Made by a program: the position numbers and the translations under genes. Below are positions 1,246 to 18,628 of a stretch of 18,628 nucleotides of DNA, one piece after another. Origin of the DNA: a virus (taxonomy: Duplodnaviria; Heunggongvirae; Uroviricota; Caudoviricetes); the IMG/VR virus record IMGVR_UViG_2731957842_000007, positions 1 to 18,628 of that record; one strand, given 5' to 3'. The notes under the pieces were generated by a model. That model was not told the origin of the DNA, searched no databases, and saw nothing but the letters and a program-made list of their open reading frames with translations. The stretch's first letter is position 1; each line of letters begins with the position of its first letter.

Positions 1246-2402
1246 TGCTCACCGTTAAGCAGATTGAAGCAGCAAAGCCGAAAGAAAAACCATACCGCCT
1301 TCTCGATGGTAATGGCCTGTACCTTTATGTCCCTGTGTCAGGGAAAAAGGTATGGCAGCTTCGCTACAAGATTGACGGTAAGGAGAAAATCCTGACCGTC
1401 GGAAAATATCCGCTTATGACTTTGCAGGAGGCAAGGGATAAAGCATGGACCGCGAGGAAAGACATCTCGGTTGGCATCGATCCGGTAAAAGCGAAAAAGG
1501 CTTCGTCTAACAACAATTCCTTTAGCGCCATTTACAAGGAATGGTACGAGCACAAGAAGCAAGTCTGGTCAGTAGGCTATGCAACTGAACTTGCCAAAAT
1601 GTTTGATGACGACATTTTACCTATCATCGGCGGCCTTGAAATTCAGGATATTGAGCCTATGCAACTGCTGGAAGTAATCCGCAGGTTTGAAGATCGCGGT
1701 GCAATGGAGCGAGCCAACAAAGCACGCAGAAGATGCGGCGAGGTTTTCCGTTACGCTATTGTCACTGGTAGGGCTAAATATAACCCGGCACCTGACCTTG
1801 CTGACGCCATGAAAGGATACCGCAAGAAGAACTTCCCGTTTCTTCCTGCAGACCAGATCCCTGCATTCAACAAAGCACTGGCAACATTTTCAGGAAGCAT
1901 CGTATCGCTCATTGCGACTAAAGTTTTGCGCTACACAGCACTAAGAACGAAAGAGCTTCGCTCTATGCTATGGAAGAACGTCGATTTTGAAAACAGGATT
2001 ATCACTATCGACGCCAGTGTGATGAAGGGACGCAAAATTCATGTGGTTCCTATGTCAGACCAGGTGGTTGAACTTCTCACTACGCTAAACTCAATCACCA
2101 AACCAGTATCAGAGTTTGTTTTTGCCGGGCGCAACGATAAGAAGAAGCCAATTTGCGAGAACGCTGTACTGCTTGTGATCAAACAAATCGGCTATGAAGG
2201 TCTGGAAAGCGGTCACGGATTCAGGCATGAATTCAGCACGATTATGAACGAGCACGAATGGCCTGCTGATGCTATTGAAGTGCAACTGGCACATGCCAAC
2301 GGCGGATCTGTGCGCGGGATTTACAACCATGCTCAGTATCTCGATAAGCGCAGAGAAGTGATGCAGTGGTGGGCGGATTGGATTGATGAAAAGGTGGAGT
2401 GA
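1245..2402 (+). CDS. intS: Tyrosine site-specific integrase (phage integrase family), 385 aa
   Basis: Starts MLTVKQIEAAKPKEKPYRLLDGNGLYLYVP; C-terminal catalytic region contains R...HGFRHEF...Y motifs. The ORF-track GTG at 1209 is rejected in favour of the ATG at 1245, which gives the expected 385 aa length for the argW-associated integrase. Confidence 0.9.
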   Translation: MLTVKQIEAAKPKEKPYRLLDGNGLYLYVPVSGKKVWQLRYKIDGKEKILTVGKYPLMTLQEARDKAWTARKDISVGIDPVKAKKASSNNNSFSAIYKEWYEHKKQVWSVGYATELAKMFDDDILPIIGGLEIQDIEPMQLLEVIRRFEDRGAMERANKARRRCGEVFRYAIVTGRAKYNPAPDLADAMKGYRKKNFPFLPADQIPAFNKALATFSGSIVSLIATKVLRYTALRTKELRSMLWKNVDFENRIITIDASVMKGRKIHVVPMSDQVVELLTTLNSITKPVSEFVFAGRNDKKKPICENAVLLVIKQIGYEGLESGHGFRHEFSTIMNEHEWPADAIEVQLAHANGGSVRGIYNHAQYLDKRREVMQWWADWIDEKVE

Positions 2403-2417
2403 TCCACCTTTTCTGTT
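2393..2417. terminator. Bidirectional rho-independent terminator between the convergent int and tailspike genes
   Basis: Stem GGTGGA (2393-2398), loop GTGA, stem TCCACC (2403-2408), followed by TTTTCTGTT on the plus strand and preceded by AAAA (a T-run on the minus strand); overlaps the int stop codon. Confidence 0.5.
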
Positions 2418-2419
2418 AA

Positions 2420-4414
2420 TTATTCAGCCTTAGCAAAAGTGGTCATAGTTGTTCCACTGAAAGTGAATGACCTGTCTGTAAGAGTAACATCCTGAATAGC
2501 AAAGTAATCGCCAACACCAGCGCCATTTACATAAAACTCGAATATCTCAGATGTATTTTCCGGAATAATATTATTAGCAATATAACACGTAGATAAAGAA
2601 CCATTTGTTGATGGTAAAGTTCCAAATAGCGTTGCATCCGATGCAGCATATATCGAACTGCTTAAATAAATATTTATATCAACATTACTCTCATAAGTAA
2701 CAATTAAGTACACCCGGTCGTTAACCTTCCACCCTCTGTCTTTTATCTTAGTATTAAGTGATAGCTTGTTAGAACTAGGGGTCGTTACGGTATTAATGGT
2801 TATTTTTGCTCCTATTGAGTTGTATCTGCTTCTGGTTACTGTATTACCAGTATTGTTCATTGTATAAAGGATTGCTCTGCTTTCTGCAAACGTCCTCATA
2901 TTAATCTTGCCTAAACAATCTCCTTCCATAACTTGTGGGCCAGACACAGTTGCACCAATATAACAATTAGTAAATACAGCATGAGCCCTGTTGTCAGTGC
3001 TTGATGCAAGTAATGAAAGTTTAAAGTTGCCCTGATCTGCAATCCAGCAACTATCAACCTTAACTACAGCATCATTGTCAAGAACAACAAACCTTCCTCC
3101 CTCATTGTAATATCCTACAAAAGCATTTACACCGCTTATTTTTACTACTCCATCTGGAACCGTAAAGATATCGCCTTGTATCGCTTCGCCATAGTACCCG
3201 CCAACAATATTGGTCACTCTGGTATTTAAGTACATGCCATGCCCAATGCCGAACTCAAGGTCACATCCAATTAAGCTTAAACCTTCAATAGGGGAAGTAC
3301 CAGAAGCATAAAAGGCATATTCACCGACCTTATTTGATGCAAATCCACAGTTATTGAACGTTACGCGGTTGTTAGCCCCAGCAAGGTGAACTCCGCGATT
3401 TGGCGCAGGAACAAAAGAACAGCAATCATAGGTATTAAGCCAGTCGTTTATAGTATAGAAGTTCGCCACCACGCCATTGATGAAACGACAATTATGGGTT
3501 CTTCCTAGGTGAACATATTGAATTCGGCAAGCATAGTTGGCGATGTTGTTCCCATCAACTGTAACGTGAGAGATAGATGTGCTACGTCTTATAGAGTCAG
3601 TTTCGTAGTACATGTTGACAACTGTCTCTCCAGTGAACCCACTCCCCGCAATAATGAATGACTTCTCAACGCCATCCCCGAATAGGTCAACAGTGCCTAT
3701 TGTTAAATCAACTGGTGACTTAACATAGTAAGTTCCTGCAGGGACAAACAGCCTCTTTCCTGCCGATAAAGCAACTGCTGCAGCAGCATTAAAGCTAGCT
3801 GAGTTATCTGCCGCTGGATCACCAGTAATGGGGAAAAATTGAGCAACAGAAATATAATCTGCTACCGTCACTTCGTACCATGGCAAAGCAGGAGATGACG
3901 GAAGAGTGCCACTACCACCGGTGTAGATTTTATTATTATACCACCACCAGTTATCAACATTAGATAACACCCCCTCCTGCCACACCCCCCCTAACGAGAA
4001 ATCAAGACCGTAAGAAGTAGCTATCTGACTTAATGATAATGTTGCTCCTCTGTCAGAAGCTAATTCTTGCCTTAATTGGTCAGGGTCATACTTCAGCACA
4101 TTAGGAAAATAGAACTGCTGTGCACCATACGCATCATAAACAGCCATAGAATGGCCTTGCACAGTTACGAACTTGGCAATCTGTCCGTTATATACCGGAT
4201 ATCCAGCAGCGTTAATGATGATTGGTTGCGAAACAGGAACGTGAGAGCCGTCTTCGTTCTCCACATAAACCTGAATCTGGTTTTCAGGATTTACAGGGTC
4301 AGTGTCAATTTTACCGATATAAATTTTGCCATTGGCTACGGCTTTAAAAGAACGAGCCATAGTGAAGAGTTGCGAAGGCATGCTTACCACAACATTTGCG
4401 GTGATATCTGACAT
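2420..4414 (-). CDS. Tailspike protein: P22-like N-terminal head-binding domain fused to a divergent C-terminal receptor-binding domain (probable glycan depolymerase)
   Basis: N-terminus [60 protein letters not shown] matches the conserved head-binding domain of P22 gp9-type tailspikes; the remainder has no P22 gp9 similarity I can see. Start placed at ATG 4414 (GGAG 9 nt upstream) rather than the ORF-track start at 4462. Confidence 0.85.
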
Positions 4415-4462: not shown

Positions 4463-4535
4463 ACCGAAATGGTACTATTGAGTATTTATCCAGTAGGTTA
4501 CGATGCCATTCCACCCAACTGGTGAGGCATCAAGG

Positions 4536-4802
4536 ATGTACAGCAAATACGACGAGGCGCAGTTTCACTTGAGACTTCCGCATGAACTCCACGCGAAAAT
4601 TAAACAGCGCGCGAAGATGAATAACAGGTCGCTGAACTCAGAGATAATTGCAGCGATTGAAGAATCATTGGCTAAACAAAGCTCTGCATCCGTTTACATT
4701 GACGATGCAGAGCGTATGGCAGAACAACAATCTGATATGGTTAAGAAAATGGTTTTTGAAACGCTTAAGACCATGTATAGCAATAATAAAAAGGAAACAT
4801 AG
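4536..4802 (+). CDS. mnt: Mnt-like ribbon-helix-helix (Arc/MetJ family) repressor, 88 aa
   Basis: FHLRLPHELHAKIKQRAKMNNRSLNSEIIAAIEESL is a ribbon-helix-helix N-terminal fold; C-terminal DAERMAEQQSDMVKKMVFETLK resembles the P22 Mnt C-terminus as I recall it. ATG at 4536 with GGTGAGG 8 nt upstream; ORF-track start 4503 rejected. Confidence 0.7.
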   Translation: MYSKYDEAQFHLRLPHELHAKIKQRAKMNNRSLNSEIIAAIEESLAKQSSASVYIDDAERMAEQQSDMVKKMVFETLKTMYSNNKKET

Positions 4803-4872
4803 AAATCTAGTTTCCGGCTAAAATGGCATTGCCTTCATGATATCCTGTGAAAAACTAAGGAGAGTTAACCAT

Positions 4873-5358
4873 ATGAAAAAATCACTGTTAATTATCCCGC
4901 TTCTGCTGGTTGGATGCGCAAAAGTAAGTGACTATCAAGCAAGTTGCGAACAACGCTATCAAAAGCTTAGCGATATGGCTAATTGCCTTGATGCCAGAGT
5001 GAAGAACGACTCACGCATGGCATCAGCACCAACACCTAAGCTATATGTCCTTGCTGCAAAGATGCTCGGGCAAGGTGTCGATGAAGGCAAGATAAGTGAC
5101 GCACAGGCAAGACTTGAGCTTCAGAATCTTTATGTTCAATTACAAAGCCAAGAACAAGCCCAACAAATAGCACAAAGCCAAGCATTCCAGCAGGCTTTAT
5201 TGAATTATCAGGCTGTAAACACAATGCAAGCGATCGAGCAAAAAGCGAGACAGCCTGTTATAACTCAACCCTATCCAACACGAGTTGACACTTACACAAA
5301 CTGCAATTCAGGATTTGGAAACACCGTCACATGCAACAGTAGCAGCAACATTAGATAA
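4873..5358 (+). CDS. Predicted lipoprotein with Gln-rich C-terminal region, 161 aa; candidate superinfection-exclusion or moron protein
   Basis: MKKSLLIIPLLLVGC has a signal peptide and lipobox (LVGC); strong RBS AAGGAG 10 nt upstream of ATG 4873; occupies the position where P22-like phages carry sieA/immI genes. Confidence 0.7.
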   Translation: MKKSLLIIPLLLVGCAKVSDYQASCEQRYQKLSDMANCLDARVKNDSRMASAPTPKLYVLAAKMLGQGVDEGKISDAQARLELQNLYVQLQSQEQAQQIAQSQAFQQALLNYQAVNTMQAIEQKARQPVITQPYPTRVDTYTNCNSGFGNTVTCNSSSNIR

Positions 5359-9913: not shown

Positions 9914-10758
9914 TGCTCCGCGATTATCTTGATGGTTGTGGCAGTAAACGCCGCACCATTCGACTGAATGGTTAACGTGCTGCCATTTGTGGCAAGAAAG
10001 CCGTCTTTATCCACGCTGAAGAACGTAGCTAACAAGATGTTATCGGTTGTTGTCGCCGAGTTGCGACTGCTTACCAGTGTGTCAGGAACAGAGCCGGAAA
10101 AGGTTAGCTGCATTGACCTGTTTGCGGTTCCGCTGGGCCACGTCCCGACAATCGACAGCTTGAAGAACAGGGTTTTGTTCTCGTTGAACACAACCATCTT
10201 GTTGTTAACGGTGTCGAAGAATGGTGCCAACGAGCCGGATGACGGCGTGAGCGTTTTCAGCAGGCTAACAAGGTTGGTCGGCGCTGTCGGGATGGTTACT
10301 GATACGCCAGAGTAAACAACCTCTGACTTCTTGCGTGTGGTTGCATACTCCAGAGCATCAATGCGCGTTTCATGGTCTGAAACCTGCGACTCCAGCGACT
10401 GAAGTCTGGTATCAAGCGACGCAATATCGCTTTCATTCTGAGTGATTCGTGTTTCATGTTCCTGAAGAGTTGATTCTGCCTGACTGATTCGCTCCTCATG
10501 ATTAACAAGCGTTGCTTCCGCAGCAGAAATTCGCTGCTCATGGTCAGCGAGAATCACATCCTGCTCATCGTTCCTGACTTGTGCGTCATAAGCGCCCTGT
10601 CCGGCCTCGTTGGCCTTGTTAGCCACGTTACCAACATCAGTGCCCTGTGCGATAACGTAAAGCAGATACGACTGCGAGAAGATATTGCGTGGAAGGACTG
10701 ATGTGTCGAGCCGTGTAGCCTGAATGATTACCGGCACATTGAGATTCGAATCCGCCAT
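9910..10758 (-). CDS. Tail needle protein, P22 gp26-like, with a divergent C-terminal knob domain, 282 aa
   Basis: N-terminus [43 protein letters not shown] matches the conserved gp26 N-terminal domain; central heptad-like repeats ([43 protein letters not shown]) fit the trimeric coiled-coil needle; C-terminal 120 aa differ from P22. Confidence 0.8.
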
Positions 10759-11552
10759 TACTCAATCCTTATCTGAGCGCCAGACAGAGTGACAGGTGAC
10801 TTCGTGATAACGCGCAATTTGAAACCAATGTTTTTCCTGATGCGCCCTACTTTCTTCCACAAAACGCGTTTGTCGTAAACGAACGGTTCATTCTGCTCAA
10901 TCATCTGCTCACGCCCGTAATTGATGCCGTCAGTGGTTGCAGAGAGGAACAGGCGGTCGGCGTACTGAGCTACGCCAGTGGATGATTCCACCTCCAGATC
11001 GAAGCATCTGGCGTTATCCGCTTTGAACAGTGGAGTAAACAGCAGGTGTTCCTGTTGCTTGTCGTACTGGCTGCTGATATCGAACTGCAATTTCCCGGTC
11101 ACGGACTCCAGCTTATCGCCGCACGTTATCTGATTGCCTTCATAAATGAAGTCGATAGCGCGGTACACATCGTCATACAGGCCTGTTTTCAACACACACC
11201 ATTGCGGACCATTGGCGCTTGAAGATGCGTCGTACACGAGGACGTGGCGCGGAAGGTGGATAATCAGCAGTTCATGCGCATCAAATCGCAGCGATTCCAT
11301 CACACCATCAGCCAGTTCATCAGCAGTGTAGGAGCGAAGAATTTTCTCAATGCTCGCGCTGGCGATTGGTGATACCTGACCTGATCCGATGATGTATACA
11401 GACGGCGCACCCGTTGCCGGATTGCTGATAAACGCATACGAATCAGCGAATGGCGTTTTGCAGTAAGTTCCGGCAATGCCTTTCTGCACCATCAGCGATG
11501 GTTGTGCGACATACAAAGCGGCACCATCGGAGGTCAACATGACAGTAGTCAT
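10758..11552 (-). pseudogene. 5'-truncated gp10-like tail accessory gene (C-terminal 264 codons only), at the deletion junction
   Basis: Occupies the gp10 position upstream of gp26; P22 gp10 is about 470 aa but this ORF is 264 aa. The codon immediately upstream of its ATG (11553-11555 on the minus strand) is TAA, and its first codons are antisense to the start of the N-like gene. Confidence 0.6.
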
Positions 11553-11838
11553 TACATATCTGGCTGACGATAACGCCAGAAATCGCCGCAGAGCACGCAG
11601 ACAGGCTCAACGTGAACAGGCAATGCAAGAGCAGCGACTGGCGCGAAAAATTGCGCTAAAGCTCTCTGGTTGCGTCAGAGCAGATAAAGCAGCATCACTC
11701 GGAAGCCTTCGCTGCAAGAAGGCAGAAGAAGTCGAGCGTAAACAGAATCGTATTTACTACCGCAAGCCACGCAGTGAAATGGGTGTGACTTGCTCAGGCC
11801 GCCAGAAAATGAAATTAGGCAGCAAACCACTTATTTGA
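11539..11838 (+). CDS. N-like transcription antiterminator with an arginine-rich motif, 99 aa
   Basis: MTVVITYLADDNARNRRRARRQAQREQ resembles the N-terminal arginine-rich RNA-binding motifs of lambda N and P22 gp24 (which begins MTVITY). GGAGG 5 nt upstream of ATG 11539; first gene of the rightward operon. ORF-track start 11476 rejected. Confidence 0.55.
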   Translation: MTVVITYLADDNARNRRRARRQAQREQAMQEQRLARKIALKLSGCVRADKAASLGSLRCKKAEEVERKQNRIYYRKPRSEMGVTCSGRQKMKLGSKPLI

Positions 11839-11846
11839 GGTGAGAT

Positions 11847-12317
11847 ATGACAAAATCATGGAGCGTACCTTTTCCTGAATCAGAAACTGAACATGATGGA
11901 ATGCCTGTTTTCTGGAGATTCCAGGCGACAGTTGAAGAAGATGGGATAAAAATATTCGCACTTCAATATATAGCTTTTCATCAGACAGAGCATTATGCAT
12001 GGTTGGTTCCTGCGCATTGGATTGTTAATTTTAAACCAGCACCAAATCAGTGGTTACAGGAATGGAAACAAAGGAGAAATAGATATGCAATTAAGAAAGT
12101 AGCAAAAAATGCAGAAAGATCTTTTGCATTCCCAACGAAGAAACTTGCCATTGAGAGTTTATTGCGCCGGAAGAAATACCATTTAATGAGAATCAAACAA
12201 GATTTGGCTGTTGTATCAACTCTTGTTGATGGGATGAAGAATATTGATACATCAACACCAGATATTGAATATAACTTTGGACACAACCAAGAAACAGAAA
12301 ATTGGGTATTCTACTAG
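11847..12317 (+). CDS. Hypothetical protein, 156 aa, in a visibly A+T-rich segment; moron candidate
   Basis: RBS GAGGTGAG before ATG 11847; Trp- and Lys-rich soluble protein with no family I recognise; followed immediately by a terminator. Confidence 0.6.
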   Translation: MTKSWSVPFPESETEHDGMPVFWRFQATVEEDGIKIFALQYIAFHQTEHYAWLVPAHWIVNFKPAPNQWLQEWKQRRNRYAIKKVAKNAERSFAFPTKKLAIESLLRRKKYHLMRIKQDLAVVSTLVDGMKNIDTSTPDIEYNFGHNQETENWVFY

Positions 12318-12341
12318 GCCGCATAGTCGGCCTTTATTTTT
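12317..12341 (+). terminator. Rho-independent terminator after the 156 aa ORF
   Basis: Stem GGCCG (12317-12321), loop CATAGT, stem CGGCC (12328-12332), followed by TTTATTTTT. Confidence 0.6.
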
Positions 12342-12660: not shown

Positions 12661-12869
12661 TGTGCGAGTTTTATGAAGCAGATATCAAACGCCCAGAAAT
12701 GGCAAGTGATGCGACATTACGTGATTACTTCGCTGCTAAGGCTATGGCAGCAATAGTGCGCAGATGGGACGGACATTCCTTTGGCGGTGGACAGAATTCA
12801 CCACAGTACAAAGAATTAGCAGATGATGCCTACTTTATTGCTGATGCCATGCTCAAAGCTCGCGAATAA
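12657..12869 (+). CDS. Hypothetical protein, 70 aa, translationally coupled to the upstream 98 aa ORF
   Basis: ATGA start/stop overlap at 12657-12660; no recognisable family. Confidence 0.45.
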   Translation: MMCEFYEADIKRPEMASDATLRDYFAAKAMAAIVRRWDGHSFGGGQNSPQYKELADDAYFIADAMLKARE

Positions 12870-12964
12870 GCACTGTGTATTCATTCCAACGAGTGAATAC
12901 ACGGAGCAATGTCGCTCGTAACTAAACAGGAGCCGACTTGTTCTGATTATTGGAAATCTTCTTT

Positions 12965-12992
12965 GCCCTCCAGTGTGAGGGCAATTTTTTTT
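12965..12992 (+). terminator. Rho-independent terminator upstream of the coiled-coil gene
   Basis: Stem GCCCTC (12965-12970), loop CAGTGT, stem GAGGGC (12977-12982), followed by AATTTTTTTTT. Confidence 0.55.
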
Positions 12993-13004
12993 GATGGAGG
13001 ATAT

Positions 13005-13973
13005 ATGAGTGAAGTAACAGATTTAGTTGTTATTGAAAAAGCAAATGCAATGACTGTATTTCAGTCTGCCGACCAGATTGAAGAAATCCTTCAAAAGGTA
13101 GAACGTGAAGTTATGTCCTTTGTGCCTGATATCACAACGGCAAAGGGCAGAAAGGAGGTCGCTTCTCTGGCGTATAAAGTTGCGCAGACGAAAACATATC
13201 TCGATGGTCTTGGCAAAGACCTTGTTGCTGAACTGAAGGAAATTCCAAAGCTAATTGATGCCAACCGCAAGACAGTGCGCGATCGCCTTGATGAACTGAA
13301 AGCCAAGGCACGCCAGCCTCTTACTGATTATGAAGAGGAACAGGCGCGGATTAAAGCTGAAGAAGAAGCTAAGGCAGCAGCTGAAGCTCTCGCAAAGCAA
13401 ATTGAGTCTGACCATGAAATAGCGATTTTGATGGATCGCGAATTTGACCGCCAAAGAGAAGAGGCAAGACTCAAAGCGGAGCAGGAAAAGCGAGAGCATG
13501 AAGAACGCTTAAAAAGAGAAGCTGAAGAGAAAGCCAGAGCTGAAGCCGAAGCAAAGGCAAAAGCCGAAATTGAAGCAGCAGCAAGGCGAGAAGCAGAAGC
13601 TAAGGCCGCAGCGGAACGTGCAGAGCGTGAACGCATTGAAGCCGAGCAACGAGCACAGCGCGAAGCAAAAGAGGCAGCAGAACGAGCTGAAAGAGAAAAG
13701 CAGGCAGCAATTGAAGCAGAACGCAGAAAAGCACAGGAGGAGGCTGAACGAATCCGTCGCGAGGTTGAAGCAAAAGAGCAAGCCAGAATAGCAGAAGAAA
13801 AAAGAATCAAGGAAGAAGAAGAGCGTAGAGCAAAGGATAAAGCTCACCGGAAAGAAGTAAATAACAAAATACTTGCTGACCTTATCAAGGTTGGTGCATC
13901 AGAAGATGTTGCTAAAAATATCATAACAGCCATCGTAAAAGGCGAAGTATTCGCAACAAAAATAACCTACTAA
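13005..13973 (+). CDS. Hypothetical coiled-coil protein with a long Glu/Ala/Lys/Arg-rich repetitive central region, 322 aa
   Basis: ATG 13005 preceded by GGAGG; the ORF-track start 12909 lies upstream of the terminator and is rejected. Central 200 aa are AEAKA/EAERR-type repeats; globular N- and C-terminal segments. Confidence 0.6.
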   Translation: MSEVTDLVVIEKANAMTVFQSADQIEEILQKVEREVMSFVPDITTAKGRKEVASLAYKVAQTKTYLDGLGKDLVAELKEIPKLIDANRKTVRDRLDELKAKARQPLTDYEEEQARIKAEEEAKAAAEALAKQIESDHEIAILMDREFDRQREEARLKAEQEKREHEERLKREAEEKARAEAEAKAKAEIEAAARREAEAKAAAERAERERIEAEQRAQREAKEAAERAEREKQAAIEAERRKAQEEAERIRREVEAKEQARIAEEKRIKEEEERRAKDKAHRKEVNNKILADLIKVGASEDVAKNIITAIVKGEVFATKITY

Positions 13974-13997
13974 TAAAACCAACATAAGGAACCACCC

Positions 13998-14129
13998 ATG
14001 ATTTACGCAATCGCGGGAGGAGCTCGCATGGGTGCCTTCCAACTAAATGAATCTTTACTTGAACGAATCACCCGTAAATTACGTGACGGATGGAAAAGAG
14101 TTGAGGTCTTATTATGCGCAATGAAATAG
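13998..14129 (+). CDS. cIII-like small protein (FtsH protease inhibitor family), 43 aa
   Basis: MIYAIAGG...ESLLERITRKLRDGWKR matches the conserved core of lambda CIII as I recall it; AAGGA RBS upstream; located upstream of erf as in lambdoid PL operons. Confidence 0.5.
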   Translation: MIYAIAGGARMGAFQLNESLLERITRKLRDGWKRVEVLLCAMK

Positions 14130-14266
14130 CCATCAATCACCAGATGCTTCGTGCTGCACAGAACAAAGCAGTAATAGCCAGATTTATTGGTGATTCAAAA
14201 ATGTGGCTTGAAGCAAATAAAGCGATGAAATCAGCTATCAACCTTCCGTGGTATCGCAGGAAATGA
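14114..14266 (+). CDS. Kil-like small protein (putative), 50 aa
   Basis: IARFIGDSKMWLEANKAMK resembles the lambda Kil family from memory; start overlaps the cIII-like ORF, and its stop overlaps the next start. Confidence 0.35.
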   Translation: MRNEIAINHQMLRAAQNKAVIARFIGDSKMWLEANKAMKSAINLPWYRRK

Positions 14267-14421
14267 GTTTCACAGATAACTGGTCAGACGAAGAATTCAT
14301 TCGTCAGATGAAAGAATTAATCGGTAACGAAGGAGATATTCATGTCACTTGCAACCACAGTGAAGGAGAGCAAGTTACAGAGACGCATGTACACGCAGAA
14401 AGCTCTCTGGTATCGCCATAA
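14263..14421 (+). CDS. Hypothetical small protein, 52 aa
   Basis: Chained by ATGA overlap to the upstream small ORF and lying directly upstream of erf; no family recognised. Confidence 0.3.
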   Translation: MSFTDNWSDEEFIRQMKELIGNEGDIHVTCNHSEGEQVTETHVHAESSLVSP

Positions 14422-14522
14422 TGGTGACCGCGAAGGAATGCGGGTATGCCTTAATTTGTCCCGAGTCGAAGTATTAAATCAGCGTTATTTCCTTGGGCCG
14501 TGTCCATTCTGAGAACAATCAT

Positions 14523-15128
14523 ATGAGCAAAGAATTTTACGCAAGACTGGCAGCTATTCAGGAGAATCTGAACGCGCCAAAGAATCAGTACAACTCATTC
14601 GGCAAATATAAATACAGAAGCTGCGAAGATATTCTTGAAGGCGTTAAGCCGTTACTGAATGGTCTGTTTTTATCAATCAGCGATGAAGTTGTGTTGATTG
14701 GTGATCGGTATTACGTGAAAGCCACGGCAACTATTACCGATGGCGAAAACAGTCATACGGCAACTGCTCTTGCACGAGAGGAAGAAAGCAAGAAAGGAAT
14801 GGATTCTGCACAAGTTACTGGAGCTACAAGCTCTTATGCGCGCAAGTATTGCCTCAATGGTTTGTTCGGCATTGATGATGCGAAAGATGCAGATACCGAC
14901 GAACATAAACATCAGCAGAACGCAGCAGCAAAGCAATCAAAACCATCACCTACACCTGAACAGGTTCTAAAAGCATTCACTGACGCAGCAATGCAAAAAA
15001 ACACCGTGGAAGAGCTTAAACAGGCGTTCGCCAAAGCGTGGAAGATGCTCGAAGGAACACCGGAGCAGCACAAAGCGCAGGACGTTTACAACATCAGACG
15101 AGACGAATTAGAAGGAGCTGCTGCTTAA
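14523..15128 (+). CDS. erf: Erf-family single-strand annealing recombinase, 201 aa
   Basis: MSKEFYARLAAIQENLNAPKNQYNSFGKYKYRSCEDILEGVKPLLNGLFLSISDEVVLIGDRYYVKATATITDGENSHTA matches P22 Erf as I recall it. ORF-track TTG start at 14493 rejected in favour of ATG 14523. Confidence 0.85.
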   Translation: MSKEFYARLAAIQENLNAPKNQYNSFGKYKYRSCEDILEGVKPLLNGLFLSISDEVVLIGDRYYVKATATITDGENSHTATALAREEESKKGMDSAQVTGATSSYARKYCLNGLFGIDDAKDADTDEHKHQQNAAAKQSKPSPTPEQVLKAFTDAAMQKNTVEELKQAFAKAWKMLEGTPEQHKAQDVYNIRRDELEGAAA

Positions 15129-15511
15129 TGGCACATTCGATTACTGTAAGACTAAACAAGCCCGCAAGAGAGTTTCAGGCCGGGGAAAATATCGGATTCA
15201 ACATCCGTGCTGGCGTTCAGTATTACGATCGCCAGACAAAAAAGAAAGAATGGACAAACTACAGCGCCGTTGTATTTGCCAAGCCGGGAGCGCAAGCGGA
15301 TTACTACCGTAGTGTTCTTGTTGAAGGTGGCATTGTGGAAATTACCGGAGAAAACATCAGGGTTGATGTTTATCAGGGGCAAAATGGTCAATCAATCACT
15401 CTTGAATTACTGAATGCAAAGATTGGATTTGCAACTTCAGGAAACAGCCAACAGCAGCAAAGTAGCAATCATCAAAATCATCCTGAATACGACGATTCAA
15501 TCCCCTTCTAG
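15128..15511 (+). CDS. SSB-like single-stranded DNA-binding protein with an acidic C-terminal ...DDSIPF tail, 127 aa
   Basis: ATG overlaps the erf stop (TAATG); the C-terminus EYDDSIPF matches the conserved SSB tail motif (DDDIPF); the N-terminal region is compatible with an OB fold. ORF-track start 15038 rejected. Confidence 0.6.
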   Translation: MAHSITVRLNKPAREFQAGENIGFNIRAGVQYYDRQTKKKEWTNYSAVVFAKPGAQADYYRSVLVEGGIVEITGENIRVDVYQGQNGQSITLELLNAKIGFATSGNSQQQQSSNHQNHPEYDDSIPF

Positions 15512-15534
15512 ATTAGCAAAATAAGGATTCCATT

Positions 15535-15828
15535 ATGCCAGCGCCTCTGTATGGTGCGGATGACCCGCGCCGCTGTTCCGGCAATTCCGTATCGGAGGTG
15601 CTGGATAAATTCAGGAAAAACTACGACCTGATAATGTCTCTACCGCAGGAAACGAAAGAGGAAAAGGAATTTCGCCATTGTATATGGCTTGCAGAGAAAG
15701 AAGAACGCGAGCGAATTTACCAGACATCAATCCGCCCATTCCGCAAAGCCACATATACCCACTTCCCTGAAATTGACCCGCGCCTGCGTAATTACCGCTC
15801 ACGCTATGGCGCTATCAGTAATGACTGA
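15535..15828 (+). CDS. Hypothetical protein, 97 aa
   Basis: ORF with an AAGGA RBS-like element upstream of ATG 15535; no family recognised. Confidence 0.45.
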
Positions 15829-15838
15829 GGAATTTACC

Positions 15839-16003
15839 ATGAGAGGACTTGCATACAATCCCGGCATTCTTCCGGCAGAAATGATTATTCGCCAACGCGT
15901 AAAGCCAATGCCATCGAGAGAGGAATTGCTTAAGAGAAATTCTTTTCCATCAGTGAATCAAAACAAATATCTGAATGCGATGTTGCGGAGTGGGAAGAAA
16001 TGA
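15839..16003 (+). CDS. Hypothetical small protein, 54 aa (alternative start at 15821)
   Basis: GAGG 8 nt upstream of ATG 15839; its stop overlaps the next start (ATGA at 16000-16003). The 5' part of the ORF-track ORF 15689..16003 overlaps the upstream gene and is rejected. Confidence 0.3.
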
Positions 16004-16476
16004 AACAAATGTCACTAATTGAGATGGATGGATTCCTGAAAGGTAAATGCATCCCCCGAGATTTAAAGGTTAACGAAACAAACGCTGAATATCTGGTGCG
16101 TAAATTTGCTGAAGCGGAGGCCAAGTGCGCGGAGATGGCAGCGGAAAATGCGGGGCTGAAGTCTGGCGCTATGGACGAAATCAAGGTTATCAACCGTGGA
16201 GGGCAGGCATATTGCGTAAAAGATGGAGTGCAAGTTAATCCCATATATGCAAGAGGGTGGAATGATTATCGCGCAAAGTCTATGCAATCAGACACCCCAG
16301 CCACCGATGCTTTCCTGGCTGAAGTCAGGGCTAAGGCGTTTGATGACCTTTGCGCGGCGTTCGTTAAGCACGCGTCGGTGTCCGGGCTGGACGATGGCGA
16401 CTGCGTTACGGTGAAAGAGGCGACTGACGCCCTGCTGCATTGTGCGGAACAGCTTCACAAGGGAGTGCATTCATGA
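16000..16476 (+). CDS. Hypothetical protein, 158 aa
   Basis: Translationally coupled on both sides (ATGA overlaps at 16000 and 16473); no family recognised. Confidence 0.5.
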
Positions 16477-16706
16477 GCAACCTACTACCATGTCCATTCT
16501 GTGGCGGTGCAGCGCACGTTGCCAGCGAAGCAGATCACCCTGAATATGGCTCTGGCGGTCGATTCTATTTCGTTCGATGCGGTACGTGTCGCGCTCAATC
16601 TGGTAGCAAATATGCAGCGCCTGGAAATGACTGCGCGATTTTTTATTCAGAGGTTAGAGCAGAGTGGAATCAACGAGCAAAGGAGGCGAACAGTGAGCAA
16701 GATTGA
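16473..16706 (+). CDS. Lar-family restriction alleviation-like protein, 77 aa
   Basis: [12 protein letters not shown]...CGTC contains the CPFCG-type Cys motif characteristic of Lar-family small proteins; ATG overlaps the upstream stop. ORF-track start 16440 rejected. Confidence 0.5.
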   Translation: MSNLLPCPFCGGAAHVASEADHPEYGSGGRFYFVRCGTCRAQSGSKYAAPGNDCAIFYSEVRAEWNQRAKEANSEQD

Positions 16707-17268
16707 CTATCAGGCACTGCGTGAGGCGGCGCAGAACGCGAAAGATTTAGGTGGGATTAAGAATTACAAGCGAGGCGAGCAAGCTGTTGCCGAATTTGAG
16801 TCCCTGATAACGCCACACATTGTGCTGGCACTGCTGGATGAACGGGAAAGAAACCAGCAATACATCAAACGCCGCGACCAGGAGAACGAGGATATTGCGC
16901 TAACGGTGGGGAAACTGCGTGTTGAGCTGGAAGCCGCAGAGAAGCGCAACGCAAAATTACAAAGCGAGAATGCATACATCCGCAACCGGTACAAAGAACT
17001 GGACCTGTTAATCGGGAAAAACATTCTGGTCATGCAGGCTGCGATTATCGAATGGCAGGCAACTGGCGACGCTAAGAGCGGACTGGCATGGATTTATAAC
17101 ACACTGTTTGGCCCTGGCGAATTGCCGGACGAATCTGAGAAAGATGCTCAGGCCTACTTTAATCGCAAATATGCACCGATTGACGAAAAGCTTATGGAGC
17201 TTCACAAGTGGTTTTGGGAACAAAGTGAAGCCGAGCGCGCCGCCGGCATTCGCATCAAAGGAGAGTGA
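16693..17268 (+). CDS. Hypothetical coiled-coil protein (possibly Ead/Ea22-like), 191 aa, GTG start
   Basis: AGGAGG 6 nt upstream of GTG 16693; the ORF-track start at 16501 would overlap the Lar-like gene for 200 bp and is rejected. Confidence 0.5.
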   Translation: MSKIDYQALREAAQNAKDLGGIKNYKRGEQAVAEFESLITPHIVLALLDERERNQQYIKRRDQENEDIALTVGKLRVELEAAEKRNAKLQSENAYIRNRYKELDLLIGKNILVMQAAIIEWQATGDAKSGLAWIYNTLFGPGELPDESEKDAQAYFNRKYAPIDEKLMELHKWFWEQSEAERAAGIRIKGE

Positions 17269-18427: not shown

Positions 18428-18628
18428 ATGCAACACGAACTACAGCCTGATTCACTGGTTGATTTGAAATTCATCATGGCCGATACTGGCTTCGGTAAAA
18501 CCTTCATCTATGACCGGATTAAGTCCGGCGACCTGCCAAAAGCCAAAGTTATCCACGGGCGAGCAAGATGGTTATATCGTGACCATTGTGAATTCAAAAA
18601 TAAGCTCTTAAGCCGCGCCAATGGGTAA
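18428..18628 (+). CDS. torI: Excisionase / TorI-like recombination directionality factor, 66 aa
   Basis: 66 aa ORF MQHELQPDSLVDLKFIMADTGFGKTFIYDRIKSGDLPKAKVIHGRARW..., recognised as the KplE1 TorI/Xis family; last gene of the rightward operon, at the prophage end opposite int. Confidence 0.75.
   Translation: MQHELQPDSLVDLKFIMADTGFGKTFIYDRIKSGDLPKAKVIHGRARWLYRDHCEFKNKLLSRANG

Follow-up and report, generated by a model that had tools for sequence, protein, structure and literature searches.

The recombination genes in the 18,628-nt stretch of viral DNA analyzed here (the window) are best read as a PL-operon module of the HK97/CUS-3/Sf101 type, built on a presumed Erf-SSB partnership, which is now a recent and probably silent orphan of a defective prophage, neither working nor domesticated; we give this reading a probability of roughly 0.85. 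Judged from its sequence, the region makes up the distal part of a lambdoid early-left (PL) operon of that type. It belongs to an already catalogued type of lambdoid module and is ordinary rather than new: its parts, the divergent SSB included, have been named in the literature and carry little weight as a discovery. The cassette is also among the commonest lambdoid recombination cassettes, with at least 80% of the block present in 559 of the 5,426 complete E. coli genomes (about 10%).

Seven tightly packed plus-strand genes, cIII, kil, orf52, orf56, erf, an SSB-like gene and abc2, occupy positions 13998-15828 of the window (Table 1). All seven reading frames are intact and near-identical to their counterparts in plaque-forming phages; for six of the proteins, identity to phage versions is 95-100%. 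At the DNA level, 36 phage records match the module at 96-98% identity along its entire length. Sf101, CUS-3, HK97, HK022, mEp213 and Stx phages match the block at this level, with the same annotated gene order. The Pfam and PHROG matches of the module ORFs range from E = 4e-15 to 6e-65, with the scores for cIII, Kil, ERF and Abc2 far exceeding the Pfam cutoffs; on these sequence grounds, they are not chance ORFs.

Table 1. Features of the module and of the DNA upstream of it; positions are those of the window.
Feature	Position (nt)	Strand	Description
Deletion junction	11525-11534		10-bp overlap of two homologies: gp10 (head-closure) ends at 11534, N-leader starts at 11525
N antiterminator gene	11539-11838	+	intact, 99 aa; phrog_271 E = 1.2e-37
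Terminator-like hairpin	12316-12333	+	tL-type position between N and the module; consensus scan
Second terminator-like hairpin	12963-12984	+	upstream of a TolA-like gene and cIII; 8-bp stem with 5 G-C pairs, then T8
cIII	13998-14129	+	43 aa, predicted FtsH protease inhibitor (lysogeny factor); PF02061 Lambda_CIII E = 4e-15
kil	14114-14266	+	50 aa, predicted cell-division (FtsZ) inhibitor; PF06301 Lambda_Kil E = 1.7e-20
orf52	14263-14421	+	52 aa, small acidic protein, HK022 gp42 / HK75 gp33 family; phrog_2123 E = 6.6e-42
orf56	14342-14512	+	56 aa, HK620 HkaM family, precedes the annealing-protein gene; phrog_1723 E = 9.4e-36
erf	14523-15128	+	single-strand annealing protein; PF04404 ERF E = 2.1e-44
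Erf C-terminal three-helix domain	~14958-15122	+	aa ~146-200; model pLDDT 91
SSB-like gene	15128-15511	+	127 aa, HK97 gp40 type ('SSB-1b'); OB-fold core, Q-rich linker, acidic EYDDSIPF tip
abc2	15535-15828	+	anti-RecBCD protein; PF11043 Anti-RecBCD_p2 E = 6.2e-65

The initial annotation had placed the module at 13998-15511, with a chain of overlapping small ORFs leading into erf. Its gene calls held, and the chain and the overlapping start and stop codons that it described are all seen in the sequence. The chain is real but consists of four genes (cIII, kil, orf52 and orf56) rather than two, and the downstream end was wrong, since abc2, which had been missed, also belongs to the module. The small ORFs, on whose conservation the proposal had been staked beforehand, are conserved in related phages. 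The genes erf, SSB-like and abc2 are contiguous, separated by gaps of -1 to 23 nt, in the order found in HK97, HK544 and CUS-3, and the recombination genes lie contiguously downstream of cIII and kil, as the lambdoid Rec module class requires (PMC12315714). A Rfam scan of the whole window at the gathering threshold matched a tRNA as its sole hit, with no cIII thermosensor and no other RNA family.

The peptide that had been called cIII-like is borne out by its match to the Lambda_CIII profile (56 bits against a cutoff of 25.7; phrog_550 E = 1.6e-20). It is 100% identical to the cIII proteins of CUS-3 and HK544 and 72% identical to P22 C3, its gene is preceded by the Shine-Dalgarno sequence AAGGA, and its conserved central amphipathic segment, ESLLERITRKLRDGWKR at residues 18-34, is identical in the cIII of HK75 and CUS-3. 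Lambda CIII inhibits FtsH, by which CII is stabilized (PMC1838920); cII itself is gone from the present prophage. The possible Kil-like peptide proved to be 100% identical to the Kil of HK97, HK75 and CUS-3 (72.6 bits against a PF06301 cutoff of 27.6; phrog_2055 E = 1.2e-35). In lambda, Kil blocks assembly of the FtsZ ring and filamentation results (PMC3961180). The two genes overlap by 16 nt, and their order, cIII followed by kil, is shared with HK97, HK75, CUS-3 and P22.

The profile search likewise confirmed the erf call (151.6 bits against a PF04404 cutoff of 25, over residues 5-143), and the protein is 100% identical to the Erf of HK97 and HK544 and 75% identical to that of P22. Its ATG start fits the P22/HK97 N-terminus MSKEFYARL; a TTG at 14493 would lengthen the ORF but is not the start that is annotated. 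As had been described, the erf stop codon TAA (15126-15128) overlaps the ATG of the SSB-like gene (15128-15130), giving TAATG at 15126-15130. By analogy with a single model, P22 Erf, the protein would be a ring oligomer that anneals complementary single-stranded DNA. Abc2 matches PF11043 over all of the profile (positions 1-97 of 97; 215.9 bits against a cutoff of 25; phrog_656 E = 4e-55) and is 95% identical to P22 Abc2.

The carrier of the module is a ~17.5-kb defective HK620/CUS-3-like prophage at argW, tRNA-Arg(CCU), flanked by yfdC, the tRNA-Arg gene and intS on the left and by torI on the right. Its earlier description as a head-less prophage was apt: the element between argW/intS and torI is devoid of capsid, portal, terminase, lysis, replication and repressor genes, and the structural genes left are those for tail, ejection and needle, together with a 5'-truncated gene 10. 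A strain-specific deletion fused the middle of this head-closure gene to a point 14 nt upstream of N and took away the head, lysis, replication and immunity (repressor) genes along with PL and nutL; the operators are absent as well. In the HK620 annotation, N is preceded by nutL at about 110-150 nt and by PL at about 190-220 nt; since the phage homology here begins 14 nt before N, both elements are gone. N itself retains the arginine-rich motif and is 98-99% identical to the N proteins of CUS-3 and vB_EcoP-611R6. The gp10/N junction was found in none of the 5,426 complete E. coli genomes.

Because PL and nutL have been deleted, the module is probably transcriptionally silent in the present prophage. 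The initial annotation's idea of a residual recombineering-like activity is weakened by this loss and by the lack of promoter-like sites upstream. Expression from PL under N antitermination, which concerns the regulatory context and not the identity of the genes, does not apply here. Consensus scans returned no promoter-like site on the plus strand between 9500 and 11600 and no convincing replacement promoter, though such scans overlook weak, non-sigma-70 and activator-dependent promoters. The weak plus-strand promoter-like sites that do occur, at 12788-12816 and 14269-14296, could be taken to favor a different reading, namely that expression of the orphan continues, by read-through or from some cryptic promoter, and that the host has domesticated it to gain RecA-independent annealing recombination, to modulate RecBCD or to arrest division through Kil when stressed. 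We consider this unlikely. Shuffled sequence contains more promoter-like matches (7.7 ± 2.6 vs 3 here, and 2.0 vs 0), and while read-through from antisense late-gene DNA may occur, two terminator-like hairpins precede the module; tL terminators are annotated in the corresponding interval of HK620, HK97 and HK75. All seven ORFs and N are intact and have ribosome-binding sites, but N has been left without a nut site, and a junction unique among 5,426 complete genomes leaves little time for selection. For the same reason, the intactness of the genes probably reflects recency rather than selection. Other defective prophages do contribute kil-like and recombination genes, for example recET and kilR of Rac; in a related argW prophage, that of strain VG48B2, IS2 splits erf and the SSB-like gene has been lost. 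A recent, probably silent orphan thus remains our preferred reading, and finding genes intact in a defective prophage is no reason to call them active: here neither the promoter nor the nut site is left.

The SSB-like protein shares 95-99% identity with HK97 gp40 and with the homologues of gp40 in HK544 and CUS-3. A 2025 survey of lambdoid Rec modules classes HK97 gp40 as 'SSB-1b' and describes proteins of this type as without experimental study (PMC12315714). Sequence models of the SSB family miss the protein: it has no Pfam match at E ≤ 0.1, it misses the threshold of TIGR00621 (16.4 bits against a cutoff of 53.95), and its nearest PDB SSB is found at E = 0.04 with the single sequence and E = 0.43 with a profile. 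Because Pfam and NCBIfam miss the SSB-1b type, its members carry the RefSeq label 'hypothetical protein' in hundreds of genomes, and SSB-1b is in this sense an annotation gap. Structure prediction, on the other hand, confidently gives an OB fold, for which SSB and PriB supply all of the best structural matches, and hhalign aligns the protein to canonical SSB with a probability of 90% (E = 1.5e-6). In that alignment Y32, W42, F50 and Y82 fall on the ssDNA-stacking residues W40, W54, F60 and W88 of E. coli SSB; among 33 homologues F50 is invariant and Y32 and W42 are nearly so. Residues 108-121, with pLDDT <50, form a predicted disordered linker, and the architecture of the SSB-1b family is accordingly a core, a linker of variable length and a conserved D-D-x-I-P-F tip. 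The SSB-like call therefore stands as regards the OB fold in structure prediction and the DDSIPF tail, but SSB family sequence models (Pfam, NCBIfam) do not recover it. P22 Abc1 was considered as a homologue and rejected, as it has no similarity to the protein.

The tip reads ...SIPF in 86 of 87 near-identical copies. The reference gp40 of HK97 is frameshifted and has no IPF tip; this loss, if real, would mean that the tip is dispensable for laboratory phage growth. A scan of viral contigs for SSB-1b relatives gave 80 near-identical copies, which served for haplotype counts and not for distant synteny. More distant homologues (47-72% identity) begin at or beside the stop codon of an annealing-protein gene, and the annealing proteins preceding them are of mutually unrelated types: Erf, HK75-type and Sak4/AAA_24. 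Coupling to unrelated types speaks for a task that the SSB-like protein and the annealing protein have in common. It also bears on the idea that the protein is mainly a decoy, whose host-like DDSIPF tip titrates ExoI, RecQ, PriA and RecO, or interacts with a defence that senses phage SSBs. The tip is indeed close to the DDDIPF of E. coli SSB and is kept across the SSB-1b family, some homologues having the exact host sequence PMDFDDDIPF, and phage SSBs are reportedly sensed by a retron-associated OLD defence system, according to work cited in bioRxiv 10.64898/2026.07.10.737580. However, the OB core retains the aromatic DNA-stacking positions of SSB, which a pure tip decoy would not need, and the gene is translationally coupled with annealing-protein genes of several unrelated types; we find a mainly decoy function quite improbable. 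The two roles, decoy and recombination cofactor, are nonetheless compatible and not mutually exclusive.

In an intact phage, N acts at nutL to make transcripts from PL resistant to terminators, and the whole block is expressed from them; Abc2 binds and redirects RecBCD, and Erf rings anneal the resulting single-stranded DNA. We infer by analogy that the SSB-like protein binds single-stranded DNA and contacts Erf. Specifically, it would coat the DNA and pass it to Erf through its ...DDSIPF tip, as suggested by HK620, where SSB stimulates Sak4 through the C-terminal tip (Hutinet et al. 2018, PMC5928155). The overlapping erf stop and SSB start codons would couple translation, so that the two partners would stay balanced.

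Tentatively, we suggest that the last ~55 residues of Erf (EQVLKAFTDAAMQKNTVEELKQAFAKAWKMLEGTPEQHKAQDVYNIRRDELEG), a predicted three-helix bundle, may be a portable adaptor that docks annealing proteins on the acidic C-terminal tip of SSB, whether that of the host or of the phage. The domain is common to Sak4-like and other annealing proteins, and it ends proteins with unrelated cores, among them P22-type Erf, other ERF cores, HK75-type proteins and Sak4/AAA_24 ATPases. In a locus-based HMM search that sampled diverse SSB-1b loci, a domain-bearing annealing protein was encoded immediately upstream of SSB-1b at 9 of the 11 loci with a ...[IP]PF tip and at none of the 5 without it (Fisher's exact p ~0.005, with phylogeny uncontrolled). 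A Foldseek search of the PDB with this small helical bundle gave nothing significant (best E = 0.95) and no Red-beta C-terminal domain entries, while database searches with the 61-62-aa domain alone returned just close Erf fragments or 20 hits and are uninformative on domain shuffling. If the domain is indeed a shared adaptor for the SSB tip, it would help in choosing annealing-protein/SSB pairs for recombineering in new hosts.

The two small genes between kil and erf are close to their phage counterparts. The start of orf52 forms an ATGA overlap with the kil stop, and the gene sits in the position of P22 arf; its product is 98% identical to the CUS-3 version and 92% identical to HK75 gp33, and its N-terminal 21 aa are found again after kil in other phages, with a C-terminal tail that varies between alleles. 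The overlap of orf56 with orf52 is 80 nt long, in the +1 frame, and variation is concentrated at codon position 3 of the orf56 frame. The orf56 protein is 100% identical to its CUS-3 version and 33% identical to HK620 HkaM (E = 1.6e-9), and in phages of Erwinia, Enterobacter and Salmonella, homologues at 48-79% identity are encoded immediately ahead of Sak4-like or HNH+Erf genes. P22 Arf was rejected as a homologue of either: it falls in a different PHROG (phrog_2445), has no BLAST match to orf56 and shares with orf52 a weak SDEEFI motif alone (47% over 17 aa, E = 0.005), and by similarity it is a positional analogue only.

That orf52 and orf56 form one protein through a programmed +1 ribosomal frameshift, or that one of the frames is noncoding, is very improbable. 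In its favor, HK97 gp42 is a single 83-aa fusion of an N-terminal part from orf52 with a C-terminal part from orf56, its gene differing in length by 2 nt, and 14 of 16 variants in the 80-nt overlap alter the orf52 protein, whose tail differs between alleles. Against it, orf56 has its own ATG with AAGGAG 7 nt ahead of it and is free-standing in phages without orf52, occurring as HkaM in HK620. Neither frame is interrupted in 42 of 46 haplotypes, at a fixed length of 287 nt, the fused HK97 arrangement was seen once in those 46, and HK75 gp33, the homologue of orf52, gives its own phenotype when expressed. HK75 gp33 has recently been reported as a trigger of the P2 OLD defence system. As annotated, its gene also spans the first 30 codons of an unannotated orf56 homologue.

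The closest known systems are the cIII-kil-gp42-erf-gp40-abc2 segments of HK97, HK022, CUS-3 and Sf101, which have the same genes, order and overlaps as the present module and from which it differs in that PL, nutL and the repressor have been lost by deletion. The HK97 reference copy differs in two further respects, its orf52 and orf56 being fused and its SSB tip frameshifted. Segments of this class combine an annealing protein, an SSB and an anti-RecBCD protein, with no nuclease (PMC12315714).

The c3-kil-arf-erf-abc1-abc2 operon of P22 is alike in position and logic, with Erf 75%, Abc2 95% and C3 72% identical, and it is in P22 that the functions of Erf and Abc2 have been established both genetically and biochemically. 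P22 has abc1 in place of the SSB-like gene and arf (phrog_2445) in the position of orf52 and orf56, and its Kil is unrelated in sequence to the present one. HK75, which might have served as a direct model, was set aside: the core of its 'Erf' differs, its SSB is a canonical 168-aa SSB, and it shares only kil, orf52/orf56, abc2 and the Erf C-terminal domain with the present module.

A like architecture is found in HK620, where hkaM-sak4-ssb-abc2 runs from a small leader gene through an annealing protein and its cognate SSB (acidic ...PPF tip) to Abc2 (PMC5928155). HK620 also shares its integrase and attachment-site type (IntS/TorI at argW) with the present prophage. However, its annealing protein is the RecA-core ATPase Sak4 and not Erf, and its SSB belongs to a different family (DUF669, 'SSB-2') rather than to the OB proteins of HK97 gp40 type. 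E. coli Ssb (PF00436, TIGR00621) has, like the present protein, an OB fold, four stacking aromatics, a Gln-rich disordered linker and a D-D-x-I-P-F tip; the present protein, at 127 aa, is far shorter, and its similarity falls under every curated threshold.

As for the carrier, the CPS-53/KplE1 element of E. coli K-12 occupies the same argW site and has the same unusual layout, intS and torI lying at opposite ends, and both are defective P22-like remnants. KplE1 is ~10 kb long and, to our knowledge, has no erf/SSB module, whereas the present element, at ~17.5 kb, retains tail genes and the left operon.

The block at 13998-15828 is a series of tightly packed, overlapping ORFs on the plus strand, including the TAATG at 15126-15130 that joins the erf stop to the start of the SSB-like gene, and its gene identities, order and overlaps are established here. 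The cIII-like, Kil-like and Erf calls of the initial annotation are borne out by Pfam matches far above the curated thresholds (Lambda_CIII, E = 4e-15; Lambda_Kil, E = 1.7e-20; and ERF, the profile search proposed there as a check, E = 2.1e-44), and abc2 likewise matches Anti-RecBCD_p2 (E = 6.2e-65). PHROGs are consistent with Pfam on these four genes, and place orf52 in phrog_2123, orf56 in phrog_1723 and the SSB-like gene in phrog_44, 'single strand DNA binding protein' (E = 1.8e-28). The module had been given as 13998-15511; the genes assigned to that interval are there, but its end point is too early, since abc2, one gene further, also belongs to the module. The start of erf is the ATG giving MSKEFYARL, matching P22 and HK97, and not the TTG at 14493. 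Shine-Dalgarno sequences are recognisable upstream of cIII, kil, orf56 (AAGGAG), the SSB-like gene (GAAGGAG) and abc2.

Features of the module and its surroundings (window positions unless a collected locus is named)
Feature	Position	Strand	Size	Remarks
P22-like late genes	intS-11552	-		tailspike; gp16-, gp20- and gp7-type ejection proteins; gp14; Sf6-type needle
Head-closure gene 10 fragment	intS-11552	-		without first ~213 codons
N	11539-11838	+	99 aa	intact gene, arginine-rich motif included; 14 nt after junction
Terminator-like hairpin	12316-12333			between N and cIII
Terminator-like hairpin	12963-12984			between N and cIII
cIII	13998-14129	+	43 aa	100% identity to CUS-3 and HK544
kil	14114-14266	+	50 aa	overlaps cIII by 16 nt; 100% identity to HK97, HK75 and CUS-3
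orf52	14263-14421	+	52 aa	ATGA overlap with kil stop
orf56	14342-14512	+	56 aa	80-nt overlap with orf52, +1 frame
erf	14523-15128	+	201 aa	10-nt gap to orf56; 100% identity to HK97 and HK544, 75% to P22
Erf C-terminal domain	~14958-15122			Erf residues ~146-200; confidently modelled three-helix bundle, pLDDT 91
SSB-like gene	15128-15511	+	127 aa	C-terminus ...EYDDSIPF; 99% identity to HK544, 98% to CUS-3, 95% to HK97 gp40
abc2	15535-15828	+	97 aa	23-nt gap to SSB-like gene; 95% identity to P22
Domain copies elsewhere	L007 2676-2843; L094 2834-3001; L104 and L105 ~2330-2500			

A lack of conservation of the small ORFs in related phages had been named as what would speak against the module; both orf52 and orf56 are conserved. 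For orf56, tblastn finds 69 phage records with identities from 100% down to 48%, and the divergent homologues are free-standing genes that directly precede the gene for the annealing protein, whichever kind that is: for example, a Sak4-like ATPase in both Erwinia phage 59 and Enterobacter phage MII_001, and HNH and Erf in a Salmonella phage. It also matches HkaM, the first gene of the HK620 module, labelled 'unknown function' (33% identity over 51 residues, E = 1.6e-9). Orf52 is 92% identical to HK75 gp33, and its residues 1-21 recur after kil in other phages. Among 46 haplotypes of the 287-nt interval spanning the two ORFs, both frames are open in 42, and the two-ORF layout at a fixed length of 287 nt is kept in 45. 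The exception is HK97, where because of a 2-nt length difference gp42 (83 aa; locus L002, NC_002167, 2652-2903 vs window 14263-14512) joins the N-terminal part of orf52 to the C-terminal part of orf56. Within the 80-nt overlap, 10 of 16 variants are synonymous for orf56 and only 2 of 16 for orf52; in the orf56-only part, 25 of the 39 variants lie at third codon positions. There is good support for orf56 as a gene, and the data support orf52 as coding for about its first 45 residues, with a tail free to vary. According to a 2026 preprint, HK75 gp33 on its own is enough to make the P2 OLD defence protein toxic, and the authors propose that gp33 manipulates RecBCD. As annotated, gp33 (HK75 locus L004, 1722-1892) spans the first 30 codons of a second gene, an intact orf56/HkaM homologue that lacks an annotation (1801-1971), so a gp33 clone carries that part of it as well.

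Curated sequence models miss the SSB-like protein: it has no Pfam match, it scores 16.4 bits against TIGR00621 (cutoff 53.95), and its nearest PDB sequence match, an SSB, is found at E = 0.04 with a single sequence and 0.43 with a profile. Structure prediction is positive. The AlphaFold2 model (33 homologues) has a mean pLDDT of 84.9, above 90 at residues 1-100, with a disordered stretch at residues 108-121, and the top 50 Foldseek matches in the PDB are SSB and PriB chains only (E from 3e-5, probability 1.0). Against canonical SSBs, a profile-profile alignment reaches 90% probability (E = 1.5e-6) and pairs Y32, W42, F50 and Y82 with E. coli W40, W54, F60 and W88, residues that established structural work shows to stack on ssDNA. 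In the family alignment the core is invariant, the Gln/Pro-rich linker varies widely in length and the D-D-x-I-P-F tip is conserved, reading ...SIPF in 86 of 87 near-identical copies. By its modelled fold and its architecture the protein belongs to the SSB superfamily, outside the curated SSB sequence family. The initial annotation had made its SSB assignment depend on an OB fold in structure prediction, and the assignment holds, with an OB-fold model, SSB and PriB as PDB neighbours and a conserved tip.

The reference HK97 gp40 ends ...YDDSNPILI, not ...YDDSIPF (L002 ~3885-3908 vs window 15488-15511), through one added C four codons before the stop, with the IPF tip kept in 86 of 87 other copies. 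Either the 2000 reference has a sequencing error here or the laboratory phage has truly lost the tip. HK97 gp40 received the name 'SSB-1b' in a 2025 survey of 325 lambdoid phages (Genome Research, PMC12315714), which describes it as an SSB on the basis of its predicted fold, with hardly any similarity in sequence to known SSBs and as yet unstudied in experiments; the Rec modules in which it sits are built from functions for SSB, nuclease, strand annealing and anti-RecBCD. At least 80% of the module block is found in 559 of 5,426 complete E. coli genomes, where the RefSeq label for the SSB-like gene is 'hypothetical protein'; this SSB-1b annotation gap is one residual value of the finding.

In tblastn against the collected loci, Erf gives matches to its last ~55 residues only, at 51-52% identity, and these are the C-termini of Sak4-like/AAA_24 ATPases of Erwinia phage 59 and a Leminorella prophage. 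Alignment shows that the domain is common to P22 Erf and HK75-type proteins too, in more diverged form, and it is found on unrelated cores (Sak4/AAA_24, HK75-type, other ERF). An HMM of the domain was run against diverse SSB-1b loci. Where the ...[IP]PF tip is present, a domain-bearing annealing protein lies directly upstream in 9 of 11 loci; where it is absent, in 0 of 5, the neighbours there being short ERF proteins without the domain, RecT and YqaJ, or no annealing protein. By Fisher's exact test p is ~0.005, for loci that are not phylogenetically independent, and every tip-less locus is from a distant metagenomic phage. A portable SSB-tip adaptor would fit this pattern, and the idea is cheap to test. 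Foldseek found no significant structural neighbour of the domain, and the Red-beta C-terminal domain was not among the matches.

The window begins in yfdC, followed by tRNA-Arg(CCU) (1009-1083) and intS, with torI at the end. The late genes left on the minus strand are those for tail, ejection and needle, plus the gene 10 fragment; the head genes are deleted, as the description of a head-less prophage implied. Sequence homologous to gp10 runs up to 11534, and that matching the phage N leader sets in at 11525 (context 10758-11838); this 10-bp overlap is typical of illegitimate recombination. In HK620, nutL lies ~110-150 nt and PL ~190-220 nt upstream of N; given how close the junction is to N here, PL, the operators, nutL and everything from the repressor through the head genes have been deleted, and the module has demonstrably lost both its native promoter and its nut site. 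The gp10/N junction occurs in 0 of the 5,426 E. coli genomes, which marks the deletion as private and probably as recent; this would account for the intact ORFs without selection.

A sister argW prophage in E. coli VG48B2 (L003 17373-22744) is the same element in independent decay: the capsid gene carries IS421, erf is interrupted by IS2, and deletion has taken the SSB-like gene together with most of abc2. In the present window, an immI-like region separating the tailspike gene from the ejection genes holds an Arc/Mnt-type ribbon-helix-helix repressor gene (4503-4802) and a 173-aa ORF (4837-5358); no antirepressor gene is seen in this copy of the element, unlike in the VG48B2 prophage. Downstream of abc2 (16440-16706, 16000-16476, 16501-17268) are a Lar-like restriction-alleviation protein (Pfam E = 1.9e-9) and ead/Ea22-like proteins, and the right end (18428-18628) encodes a TorI-type excisionase.

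No promoter-like site is present on the plus strand in the 2 kb upstream of N, and downstream of N there are only two weak promoter matches, fewer than in shuffled sequence. With two terminator-like hairpins also in the path, we infer that the block is silent in this genome; intact ORFs in a defective prophage call for caution, as intact does not mean expressed. The longest ORF at 12909-13973 (354 aa) codes for a coiled, 'TolA-like' protein rich in Glu, Ala, Lys and Arg (phrog_1376), whose family match begins at residue 33; the second hairpin, a strong one, lies within the first 32 codons of the ORF, and the ATG at 13005 is probably the true start.

Proteins of the Erf family anneal ssDNA. The SSB-like protein would, by analogy, coat ssDNA, its tip recruiting or stimulating Erf, and the TAATG overlap may couple translation of the two genes. 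The HK620 SSB uses its tip to stimulate Sak4 (PMC5928155). As for the families of the other products, FtsH is the target that CIII inhibits (PMC1838920), Kil prevents FtsZ from assembling (PMC3961180) and Abc2 binds and redirects RecBCD (PMC9836394).

The DNA at 13900-15600 is matched by 373 phage records, 36 of them with at least 80% query coverage. The full-length matches listed are 96-98% identical (Sf101, CUS-3, phiv205-1, Stx1a phages, mEp213, mEp043, HK633 and HK544), and in HK97, HK106 and HK022 the match begins at kil. The annotated order in the matching phages is the same: cIII, kil, two small hypothetical genes, erf, a hypothetical or 'ssb' gene, and abc2. P22 Arf occupies the position of orf52/orf56 but belongs to a different PHROG, and has only the SDEEFI motif in common with orf52. 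HK620 and K-12 CPS-53/KplE1 sit at argW with int and xis split, as this element does. The module is already known: it is a standard HK97/CUS-3-type cIII-kil-Rec module, carried in a recently truncated prophage.
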